From the sequence record OR844768: a stretch of 46,941 bases of DNA; one strand, given 5' to 3'. The translations under genes were made by a program, and so were the position numbers. The stretch is from Escherichia phage ECO111 5-P. The notes under the pieces are model-generated. The model was not told where the DNA came from, searched no databases, and saw nothing but the letters and a program-made list of their open reading frames with translations. This document shows positions 37,236 to 38,206 of the stretch, in pieces (position 1 is the stretch's first letter; each line of letters begins with the position of its first letter).

Positions 37236-37264
37236 AAGAAAAAGCCCCGAAAGGGGCTTTGTTT
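37236..37264. terminator. bidirectional terminator (aagccccg-aaa-ggggcttt)
   Basis: Between convergent major tail and DUF551 genes. Confidence 0.7.
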
Positions 37265-37458
37265 TATTCTTGTGGTGGCTCCGGTAGCGGCATCCAGTGA
37301 GTAACATCCTGTCGAATAGGAACAACACCGTATGCGTCATCCCATCGGCCTTCGAAATAATACAGAGTTGATATGTCGCCTCCCTTGAAACATGCGAGAA
37401 CCTCTTGTTCTGCATTTTCATCCGGCATCCGTTCACTACACTTAATCCACTGGCTCAT
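37264..37458 (-). CDS. DUF551-like protein
   Basis: C-terminal VTHWMPLPEPP signature. Confidence 0.5.
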   Translation of the reverse strand: MSQWIKCSERMPDENAEQEVLACFKGGDISTLYYFEGRWDDAYGVVPIRQDVTHWMPLPEPPQE

Positions 37459-37811
37459 AATTTGCCCTCATTCATTTTCAGGAAGACGATCATAGCCGCG
37501 CGGAATCCGTTTTCATCAGAACTGGCAATGATGCCACTAAATCCATTGTAGTACTCCGCTGCGTCATTAACAGCTAATCGCATAGACGGATGGTCGTTAA
37601 TAATTGTGATGTTGTTTTCGTCAATGATAGGCCACGCATCAGCTGGGTTGTTACATGGGTCAAACTTACTCTTAATATTCTTGTCATCAAAAAAGAAGAA
37701 TCCATCTGAACTGATATGAGCCAATCCTCCGTTTGGGCAAAGATTGCTACTCACAAAAAAGAAAACCTTTTGCGCTATTTGTGAATCATTCATGTCTCCA
37801 TAATTTTTCAT
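37455..37811 (-). CDS. hypothetical protein
   Basis: Track ORF, coupled. Confidence 0.4.
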   Translation of the reverse strand: MKNYGDMNDSQIAQKVFFFVSSNLCPNGGLAHISSDGFFFFDDKNIKSKFDPCNNPADAWPIIDENNITIINDHPSMRLAVNDAAEYYNGFSGIIASSDENGFRAAMIVFLKMNEGKL

Positions 37812-37947
37812 ATCACCTTATCCTCATCAAAAATCACACCAATCACACGAAGCAAATCTTTCGCCATGCGTTCAGCTTCTTCATAGTCGTAACCTGCATC
37901 AACATACAAATCAGTGTAGAAAATCAGGTCTGCTTTTGTTTGTTCGT

Positions 37948-38154
37948 TCATTTCTTGTCGCCACTGTTAACTAATGCCCATACAAGTGCTGCAACCCACC
38001 CAATAAAACTCCATCCGACAAGAATATTCAGTACACAGATTGCGGTCGTATTTGTGTGCTTTCTTTGCAATGCCACAAATGATGGGAGAAGATAAACAAA
38101 TATAACCAATCCAGCAAAAAGCAACAAAGTAACAACATCCATAACTAACCTCAT
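37948..38154 (-). CDS. superinfection immunity protein (Imm-like small membrane protein)
   Basis: VYLLPSFVALQRKHTNTTAICVLNILVGWSFIGWVAALVWAL matches the Imm_superinfect pattern (YxLPSxxA.xR.H.N...I..LNxLLGWT.IGW..AL.WA); likely start ATG 38142 with RBS GAGG. Confidence 0.6.
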   Translation of the reverse strand: MRLVMDVVTLLLFAGLVIFVYLLPSFVALQRKHTNTTAICVLNILVGWSFIGWVAALVWALVNSGDKK

Positions 38155-38177
38155 TCATATCTCGTTTCGATGACTTG

Positions 38178-38206
38178 AATCTACATCACCACCTAGCAGG
38201 TGTCAA
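38178..38206 (-). promoter_or_regulatory. minus-strand promoter TTGACA-N17-TAGATT with GTGGTG in spacer
   Basis: Reverse complement of aatctacatcaccacctagcaggtgtcaa. Confidence 0.55.

Follow-up and report, generated by a model that had tools for sequence, protein, structure and literature searches.

A four-gene reverse-strand island encoding a T4 Imm homologue among the tail genes of Escherichia phage ECO111 5-P

In the 46,941 nt sequence of Escherichia phage ECO111 5-P (accession: OR844768), which we refer to as the window, a short minus-strand unit lies among the tail genes. This locus raises the question of what the unit encodes, how it is expressed and whether it could protect an infected cell against phages that arrive later. 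The phage, a siphovirus that looks virulent, belongs to the Vi II-E1 / Sf11 / swi2 group (Cedarrivervirus and Swiduovirus), and the unit was analysed in the window and in its relatives.

Organisation and regulatory signals of the island

The minus-strand unit of ECO111 5-P comprised four translationally coupled genes, imm, p47, ninX and a DUF551 gene, and was reversed between the major tail gene on one side and the DUF6246 and tape-measure genes on the other. As an ATGA overlap was found at the junctions of all four genes, they were taken to form a single operon. The first gene, imm (37948–38142, minus strand), encoded a predicted inner-membrane protein of 64 amino acids that belongs to the T4 Imm family (PF14373, phrog_1039), and the second, p47 (37808–37951, minus strand), a very acidic protein of 47 amino acids (pI 4.1; phrog_17424, E 1.8e-36). 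These were followed on the same strand by ninX (37455–37811), encoding an acidic protein of 118 amino acids (phrog_444), and by the DUF551 gene (37264–37458), encoding an acidic protein of 64 amino acids (pI 4.4). A preliminary description of this DNA had reported a three-gene minus-strand cassette; the minus-strand unit was confirmed, but the gene number was not, as the 47 amino acid ORF had been overlooked.

The same description gave imm as 37948–38154. The ORF does span this region, but the true start is almost certainly at 38142, because a GAGG Shine-Dalgarno sequence read from the sequence (38149–38152, minus strand) is located 6 nt 5′ of the ATG at 38142 and nearly all database homologues are 64 amino acids long. 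The longer ORF, up to 38154, was present only in the window and one relative, and the 38154 start was rejected on these three grounds. An alternative-frame ORF overlapping imm (37967–38158) was also rejected, as the codon-position variation (16/9/45) showed the coding frame to be that of Imm; the seeming conservation of this ORF is due to the conservation of Imm itself.

On the other side of the island, the stop codon of the DUF6246 gene (38247–38963) overlapped the start of the tape-measure gene at 38963. DUF6246, a family of unknown function, was the sole family match of this gene in a profile search, and NCBIfam and PDB sequence searches with its protein returned nothing informative. The location of the gene fits the tail chaperone named in the earlier description, and this putative identity is given by its position only.

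The 30 nt gap between the stop codons of the major tail gene (37233) and the DUF551 gene (37264) was occupied by a bidirectional intrinsic terminator (37241–37260, both strands) common to the major tail gene on the plus strand and the island on the minus strand. Its hairpin, AAAGCCCC-GAAA-GGGGCTTT, had an 8 bp GC-rich stem and T-runs on both strands. The folding energies were low, at −17.0 kcal/mol for the plus strand and −13.4 kcal/mol for the minus strand (z-scores −4.5 and −3.3, respectively), and the bidirectional terminator that had been proposed at approximately 37236–37264 was thus substantiated.

Upstream of imm, the sigma-70-type promoter TTGACA-N17-TAGATT that had been assigned to the island was present (38206–38178, minus strand; score 10/12). 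The pattern TTGACR-N17-TAGATT was found four times in the window compared to 0.03 times expected from shuffles, and the four copies had further bases in common (GTGTTGAC...GTGaTGTAGATT). The island promoter was kept in nearly all of 36 relatives, regardless of the gene that followed it; in the four most divergent loci both hexamers were kept and the spacing was altered. A general promoter scan of the window found 10 sites where 7.6 were expected from shuffles, which represents no enrichment overall. A divergent extended −10 element, TGATATAAT (38218–38226, plus strand), directed toward the DUF6246 and tape-measure genes, was also kept in nearly all relatives and read TGGTATAAT in two distant loci. 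The island promoter and the TGATATAAT element are the two halves of a bidirectional promoter module. The GenBank record of the relative ASO78B has the terminator and both divergent promoters annotated at matching places. All of the elements named in the preliminary description were found where it had put them, beyond chance expectation.

The Imm homologue

The product of the first gene matched PF14373 with 66.9 bits (cut-off 27.9; E 1.5e-18) over the full 42-position profile, for which T4 Imm itself scored 58.2 bits. It also matched phrog_1039, ‘immunity to superinfection’ (E 1.9e-25), and a pairwise alignment with T4 Imm showed 36% identity over 53 residues (E 1e-12). Judged by these comparisons, the gene is a genuine T4 Imm homologue and a member of PF14373, which upholds the Imm superinfection-immunity signature first ascribed to it. 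Mutation of R33 or W50 of T4 Imm weakens exclusion (preprint 10.64898/2026.03.06.709160), and these residues aligned with R27 and W44 of the window Imm. Across ten diverse Imm homologues, W44 was invariant and R27 was conserved in at least 90%. The imm gene was under strong purifying selection, with a dN/dS of 0.067 across 26 orthologues. To our knowledge, T4 Imm is the only member of the family with experimental support, and no experimental test of the island or of this Imm subfamily was found in the literature.

Hydropathy analysis of Imm revealed two hydrophobic segments (residues 1–25 and 32–59) with a basic QRKH loop in between, which agrees, as a prediction, with the two-TM protein described previously. 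The AF2 model had four helices (residues 3–17, 19–26, 32–42 and 46–57; pLDDT 80), and its structural neighbours were Imm-family models only (TM 0.73–0.79). Imm is predicted on this basis to be a small helical inner-membrane protein. Searches of the sequences of solved structures with Imm, NinX and the DUF551 protein returned nothing informative. Two weak matches of Imm were found, one to DUF3302 (E 1e-4) and one to the 2TM module of the PADLOC 2TM-TIR model (E 0.004); the latter, sub-threshold, was the only match in a PADLOC scan of all four island proteins, and an NCBIfam search returned nothing.

Judged from the promoter type alone, the island would be expressed early. The other TTGAC-type promoters of the window precede non-structural clusters, namely the small ORFs from 10002, a cluster encoding a Vut_1-like membrane protein, and the tRNAs, whereas the structural blocks have TGnTATAAT elements instead. 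The Imm homologues of T4, Obolenskvirus, Gamaleyavirus and a Gordonia phage are also encoded among non-structural genes, those of replication, nucleotide metabolism or partition. For phages with an analogous layout there is a single transcriptome, an RNA-seq study of Kagunavirus K1B4 on a 120-minute scale, which classed the Imm gene as late and misdescribed its protein as lysis-related (PMC12645636). This late class, together with the weak matches to small two-TM families, would suit a PF14373 protein with another membrane role, in lysis timing, membrane integrity or shielding against the phage's own membrane-active proteins, that leaves incoming DNA unblocked. We consider such a role highly doubtful, as the two-TM matches fall under the family cut-offs, the lysis cassette is located elsewhere in the genome and the one family member to have been characterised acts in exclusion, with functional residues that are conserved here.

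Accessory status and variable content of the island

All close relatives carried the island and distant relatives were without it; in the latter the tail-terminator, major-tail and DUF6246 genes were approximately 60 nt apart (3939 to 3998 in locus L048). The GC content of the island was 41.5% (39.5% for imm, with imm, p47 and ninX all at 39–40%), compared to 52.0% for the major tail gene, 49.0% for the DUF6246 gene and 45.6% for the genome. The island is an accessory hotspot of variable content that is conserved clade-wide. It is not a private or recent insertion: the hotspot extends through the whole clade and its gene order is shared by the Guernseyvirinae.

The island had been called a moron. 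In the strict sense (Juhala/Hendrix definition) the word stands for a gene that is expressed while the prophage is repressed and that benefits the lysogen. The term holds here in that genes which adjoin each other in related phages are separated by additional DNA, that the base composition deviates and, at the sequence level, that the island has its own promoter and terminator. It does not hold for expression from a repressed prophage: no integrase was found in the Sf11 annotation or among the window-specific ORFs, and relatives have been described as strictly lytic (PMC10612097, PMC12001532). Carriage of the island by a prophage or plasmid was rejected, as a search of 5,426 complete E. coli genomes and 72,556 PLSDB plasmids found nothing similar. 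As the phage looks virulent, the island is closer to T4 imm than to a prophage moron.

The only gene found in all islands was p47, which was detectable in every relative that had the island, at 91–100% identity in close relatives and 52–56% in loci L038 and L039. Its dN/dS was 0.048, with variation mostly at third codon positions, and p47 forms the island's invariant core. NinX was present in 14 of 37 genomes as hypervariable, mosaic alleles, and the DUF551 protein in 33 of 37 as highly divergent alleles with 34–97% identity.

The 118 amino acid protein, previously listed as unknown, belongs to NinX/DUF2591 (PF10765, E 1.7e-9), and the DUF551-like assignment of the last gene was corroborated by its match to PF04448 (E 5.1e-15; 56.5 bits, cut-off 22); both genes exceeded the Pfam cut-offs of these families, the first of which is that of P22 NinX. 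The DUF551 family is also represented by the C-terminal domain of Stx-phage Ea22 variant 2 and by YfdS. Small accessory proteins of these two families are typical of the lambdoid nin and exo-xis regions. The families are without known function (PMC10834534); unlike in those lambdoid settings, NinX and DUF551 of the window are encoded in a virulent phage, 3′ of imm. A search for the function of NinX by homologues, alignment, AF2 model (pLDDT 79.5) and PDB fold search found only the uncharacterised Burkholderia proteins 4PUP and 4QYB. The small acidic cytoplasmic proteins p47, NinX and DUF551 are candidate host-interaction or anti-defence factors.

The imm gene was present in 27 of 37 genomes and, as the other 10 were without it, Imm is dispensable. 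Where present, it occupied the promoter-proximal position or was preceded solely by the gene for a signal-peptide protein. The operon could accordingly be seen as mainly a hotspot for host takeover or anti-defence, in which the essential function would be that of p47, and Imm would be carried along as a dispensable passenger that hardly affects fitness. The presence of p47 in every island, including distant ones without Imm, its low dN/dS, the exchange of NinX and DUF551 among very divergent alleles, as an arms race predicts, and the 10 genomes without Imm all fit this explanation. Imm too, however, is under strong purifying selection and has the promoter-proximal slot or follows the signal-peptide protein only, and no defence or anti-defence model matched any of the downstream proteins. 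We regard Imm as a mere passenger as distinctly unlikely; a hotspot of this kind would in any case be compatible with an exclusion role for Imm.

Several relatives with the island have already been annotated, including Sf11 (gp21–gp23), IME207, ASO78B (052–055), Bas80/Bas81, HC6 and ZCEC08. Their islands matched that of the window in position, orientation, promoter and terminator, with Imm proteins 82–98% identical, and differed from it in allele combination; the NinX and DUF551 alleles of the window were unlike those of most relatives. The Sf11 island was without NinX and had an extra 97 amino acid signal-peptide protein (gp20) encoded upstream of Imm. T4 Spackle is also 97 amino acids long and periplasmic. 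Sf11 gp20 was rejected as a Spackle analogue, as it showed no similarity to T4 Spackle (E 20). GenBank notes of relatives already state ‘putative superinfection exclusion protein; pfam14373’ and ‘DUF551’, and the ZCEC08 paper mentions an immunity gene on the reverse strand. Public annotations and papers thus already cover this gene, along with its family and position, and the arrangement adds little as a discovery.

Proposed exclusion and comparison with known systems

We think it reasonably probable that the operon encodes superinfection exclusion of the Imm type, transcribed from its own sigma-70 promoter in a virulent phage. Host sigma-70 RNA polymerase would transcribe the island from its consensus-like promoter as far as the bidirectional hairpin, which would halt transcription. 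Imm made in the infected cell would settle in the cytoplasmic membrane and stop the DNA of phages that arrive later from crossing it, probably, by analogy with T4, by interfering with the incoming tape-measure protein as it forms a channel.

The likeness to T4 Imm consists of the Pfam domain, the retained R33 and W50 positions, the predicted small inner-membrane protein and the virulent phage. The proteins differ in length (83 amino acids in T4, 64 in the window), and T4 imm is located in a myovirus, with early genes of DNA metabolism around it, whereas the window imm lies among the tail genes of a siphovirus. [quoted passage not shown] Both are small inner-membrane proteins, as predicted for Imm, with their own transcription unit in a siphovirus tail cluster adjoining the tape-measure gene. 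In contrast to the PF14373 protein of the window, HK97 gp15 belongs to a YebO-like family. It is also a single gene that is expressed from the prophage of a temperate phage, whereas imm of the window, in a phage that looks virulent, is part of a four-gene operon on the opposite strand.

[quoted passage not shown] These islands otherwise encode a metallophosphoesterase, an endonuclease and DNA-binding proteins, and their flanking tail genes had no BLAST-detectable similarity to those of the window. The layout of imm and the tape-measure gene is kept in two siphovirus groups, the window clade and the Guernseyvirinae, whose tail genes have diverged past recognition by BLAST. It is conceivable, and in our view very improbable, that the back-to-back position of imm with the chaperone and tape-measure genes is non-accidental and that the shared promoter module couples immunity to the pore-forming gene. 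If this were true, the layout would resemble that of a colicin and its immunity gene, and exclusion specificity and injection machinery would be inherited together.

T4 Imm binds the T4 tape-measure protein (preprint 10.64898/2026.03.06.709160). The tape-measure protein of the window had a TM-like segment at residues 648–680. It was unrelated to T4 gp29, and T4 Imm is known to act on T-even phages. Among the relatives, Imm diverged by 8% and the tape-measure protein by 34% on average. A Mantel test of Imm against tape-measure distances found no covariation (r −0.14 overall), and in 60-column windows of the alignment there was only a weak, non-significant trend in the last approximately 100 columns (r approximately 0.22, p approximately 0.06). 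Coevolution of Imm with the tape-measure protein was rejected as unsupported, and a specific pairing of Imm with the tape-measure protein of its own phage is therefore not supported.

The near-invariance of Imm beside widely varying tape-measure alleles would also fit an Imm that excluded heterologous competitors, such as T-even phages and Guernseyvirinae on the same hosts, and not its own kind. Conservation of the residues that matter in T4 Imm and the breadth of the PF14373 family, which comprises 1,811 phage records from widely different phage groups, are both in keeping with such a target. T4 Imm and HK97 gp15, however, each exclude their own phage type, and we consider an exclusively heterologous target unlikely.

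If exclusion by the window Imm is real, the mechanism of T4 Imm would also operate in common siphoviruses that infect E. coli, Shigella, Salmonella and Klebsiella lytically; many such phages are in development for therapy. Exclusion genes decide which phages can go together in a cocktail and how phages compete within a host. The relatives, some of which carry imm or the signal-peptide neighbour while others do not, and whose tape-measure alleles are very different, represent a natural comparison panel.

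Genes of the reverse-strand island

The ORF map of the window revealed four minus-strand genes in succession, not the three of the preliminary description, which had overlooked a gene for a 47-aa protein, p47. They encode Imm (mapped ORF 37948–38154), p47 (37808–37951), a 118-aa protein (37455–37811) and a 64-aa protein (37264–37458). An ATGA overlap joins stop to following start at each junction, and the four genes are therefore translationally coupled. The Imm ORF matched Imm_superinfect in Pfam (E 1.5e-18, 66.9 bits against a cut-off of 27.9) and 'immunity to superinfection' in PHROGs (E 1.9e-25). 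Its identity was thus upheld, but its proposed start was not: position 38142, giving 64 aa, appears best placed, because GAGG is located 6 nt 5′ of it, almost all database homologues are called at 64 aa and the upstream ATG of the longer ORF was found only in the window and one relative. The 118-aa protein, previously called unknown, matched NinX/DUF2591 (Pfam, E 1.7e-9), and the 64-aa protein at 37264–37458 matched DUF551 as anticipated (Pfam, E 5e-15). p47 has its own PHROGs family, phrog_17424 (E 1.8e-36). The p47, NinX and DUF551 proteins are small, acidic (pI 4.1–4.6) and soluble, and PADLOC, NCBIfam, PDB and fold searches and the literature allowed no function to be assigned to them.

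Membership of the window protein in the Imm family, which was found in 1,811 phage records, is secure. It shares 36% identity with T4 Imm over 53 residues (E 1e-12). The substitutions R33A and W50A reduce exclusion by T4 Imm (preprint 10.64898/2026.03.06.709160), and the aligned counterparts in the window are R27 and W44. W44 was invariant and R27 nearly so in an alignment of ten homologues (T4, Jerseyvirus, Kagunavirus, Gamaleyavirus, Obolenskvirus, a Gordonia phage and metagenomes). The Imm signature noted earlier is borne out by the Pfam score, the T4 alignment and these two retained residues. Hydropathy placed a QRKH loop between two hydrophobic segments; the AF2 model has four helices (pLDDT 80), and its structural neighbours in a viral library were Imm-family models only (TM 0.73–0.79). 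Among 26 orthologues imm had a dN/dS of 0.067, with variation mostly at third codon positions.

Terminator, promoters and expression

Both transcription signals proposed for the island were recovered. By its sequence, the hairpin at 37241–37260 is a bidirectional terminator, and its stability (−17.0 and −13.4 kcal/mol) far exceeds that of shuffled sequence (z-scores −4.5 and −3.3). The TTGACA-N17-TAGATT promoter sits precisely at 38206..38178 on the minus strand. The genome contains four copies of the pattern TTGACR-N17-TAGATT, where 0.03 would be expected, and the copies have further bases in common; generic promoter-like sites showed no regional enrichment (10 observed, 7.6 expected). The intergenic promoter module was kept in nearly all 36 related genomes, regardless of which gene followed it.

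The genome has two promoter styles, a TTGAC type with a 17-nt spacer and a TGnTATAAT extended −10. TTGAC-type promoters head non-structural units, namely the small ORFs from 10002, the cluster of the Vut_1-like membrane protein, the nearby tRNA island and the Imm operon, as well as clusters with ParB-like, RusA-like and replication genes (named by homology to Sf11). TGnTATAAT motifs were found at 16756, 17537, 26382, 36472 and 38218, all on the plus strand, and four of the five are directly 5′ of the portal, a head, the major tail and the DUF6246/tape-measure genes. Their number is marginal over chance (5 against 1.9 expected), and they may represent a separate class of structural-gene promoters. 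The Imm promoter and the extended −10 on the tape-measure side lie back to back within ~50 bp, a module that recurs 5′ of the major tail gene.

Early expression of the Imm operon by host RNA polymerase is the likeliest reading, because of its TTGAC promoter style and because Imm homologues of other phage groups reside among replication, nucleotide-metabolism or partition (non-structural) genes. The sole relevant transcriptome, that of Kagunavirus K1B4, places its Imm gene as late (PMC12645636).

In a window-specific segment, directly 3′ of a further TTGACG-N17-TAGATT promoter at 16109, a 154-aa ORF (15589–16053, minus strand) matches Vut_1, a family of putative transporters of vitamins or queuosine precursors. 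A second reverse island (35542–36465, minus strand), between the tail-terminator and major tail genes, is built like the Imm island, with a bidirectional terminator (35542–35562), a TTGACA-N17-TAGATT promoter (36465..36437, minus strand) and a divergent TGATATAAT at 36472 on the plus strand. It encodes tRNA-Ser(GCT), tRNA-Arg(TCT) and a small ORF (phrog_35112); relatives carry 0–4 tRNAs at this site (Met, Ile, Arg, Ser, Thr). No convincing ORF was found in the ~510 nt between its promoter and first tRNA (35927–36436, minus strand). Two blocks of this stretch are conserved: block 35935–36039 (92–99% identity in most relatives) folds into a long hairpin (−35.5 kcal/mol, z −3.3), and block 36232–36436 has 77–97% identity, distant relatives included, with no folding signal. 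These blocks could be a processing site or non-coding RNA.

Island content among related phages

The window (46.9 kb) is a practically complete siphovirus genome of the Vi II-E1/IME207/Sf11/swi2 group, to which the genera Cedarrivervirus and Swiduovirus belong. Its identity to Escherichia phages swi2, Bas80 and HC6 and to Shigella phage Sf11 is ~90% over ~80% of its length. The Sf11 annotation comprises primase, helicase, Sak4, SSB, lysis and structural modules and no integrase; nor was an integrase found among the window-specific ORFs, which include a beta-helix tail protein, a Vut_1-like membrane protein, a lysozyme and a terminase. As no integrase was seen, relatives are described as strictly lytic (PMC10612097, PMC12001532) and similar sequence was absent from 5,426 complete E. 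coli genomes and 72,556 plasmids, the phage was treated as virulent.

Using the downstream DUF6246 gene as anchor, 55 loci were gathered, and a reverse island was present at the same spot in 36/36 close relatives. Counting the window (37 genomes), essentially all had the p47 gene, 33 had DUF551, 27 had Imm and 14 had NinX. A 97-aa protein with an N-terminal signal peptide (phrog_2315; Sf11 gp20, 4273–4566 in the Sf11 locus L001) was encoded by 21 of the 37, the window not included, in the promoter-proximal slot before Imm or in its place. It matches T4 Spackle in length and predicted compartment, with no sequence similarity between the two. NinX and DUF551 alleles are highly divergent (34–97% identity); Imm (82–95%), p47 (91–100%) and the flanking tail genes (91–100%) are conserved. 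A wider search yielded 565 NinX homologues, which are mosaics of conserved motifs and exchanged segments, many on ~47-kb contigs. Five (P0054, P0055, P0071, P0072 and P0096) are on contigs of ~46–48 kb, equal in size to a phage genome, in Salmonella enterica/E. coli NCBI assemblies. Such contigs suggest that bacterial isolates are at times sequenced together with phages of this group, owing to a carrier state or to contamination; complete E. coli genomes and plasmids contained no NinX copy.

In distant relatives (39–49% identity) gaps of ~60 nt are all that separates the contiguous tail-terminator, major-tail and DUF6246 genes, so the island is extra DNA over a simpler ancestral layout. Its GC content is 41.5% (imm, p47 and ninX 39–40%), and that of the flanking genes is 52% and 49%. 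The term moron held for three of its classical marks, namely extra DNA, own promoter and terminator, and low GC, but not for the fourth, prophage expression, the phage being treated as virulent. Comparison of these loci gives the picture of a variable accessory hotspot.

Imm, the tape-measure protein and known precedents

Imm would most likely prevent the tape-measure protein of an incoming phage from forming a channel, as proposed from its homology to T4 Imm, which binds the T4 tape-measure protein (2026 preprint 10.64898/2026.03.06.709160), and by analogy with HK97 gp15, a membrane exclusion protein whose gene lies between the tail chaperone and tape-measure genes (PMC3594210). The window tape-measure protein has a TM-like segment at residues 648–680. 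Among relatives, Imm did not track the tape-measure allele of its own phage (Mantel r −0.14), the mean difference being 8% for Imm and 34% for the tape-measure protein. As the two divergences do not follow each other, Imm either recognises a conserved feature, targets other phages or acts more generically. Functional coupling of imm to the adjacent tape-measure gene, which this covariation did not support, is very unlikely.

The tape-measure protein (38963–41341) has a mean amino-acid distance of 0.34 among close relatives and a length of 778–1091 aa, and the neighbouring DUF6246 and major tail proteins vary by merely 2.5–4%; the tape-measure gene itself is therefore a recombination or diversification hotspot. 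Directly 3′ of it, in a window-specific segment (40594–42410) not present in Sf11, a 291-aa ORF (41354–42229, minus strand) combines T5orf172/MUG113 (GIY-YIG-like) and zinc-ribbon domains and probably represents an inserted homing endonuclease.

Several precedents exist. GenBank describes Sf11 gp21 as 'putative superinfection exclusion protein; pfam14373' and gp23 as 'DUF551', the ASO78B record already annotates the island terminator and both divergent promoters, a Bas81 gene is labelled 'superinfection immunity protein ... moron', and the ZCEC08 paper comments on an immunity gene on the reverse strand. Guernseyvirinae share the gene order, with Imm proteins 36–38% identical to that of the window; their tail genes have no BLAST similarity to those of the window. 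The island is thus an ordinary, already catalogued feature, of which the preliminary reading was correct and careful. The present analysis adds the universally conserved 47-aa gene, a revised start for Imm, a family of related promoters and a view of the island as an accessory hotspot of variable content.
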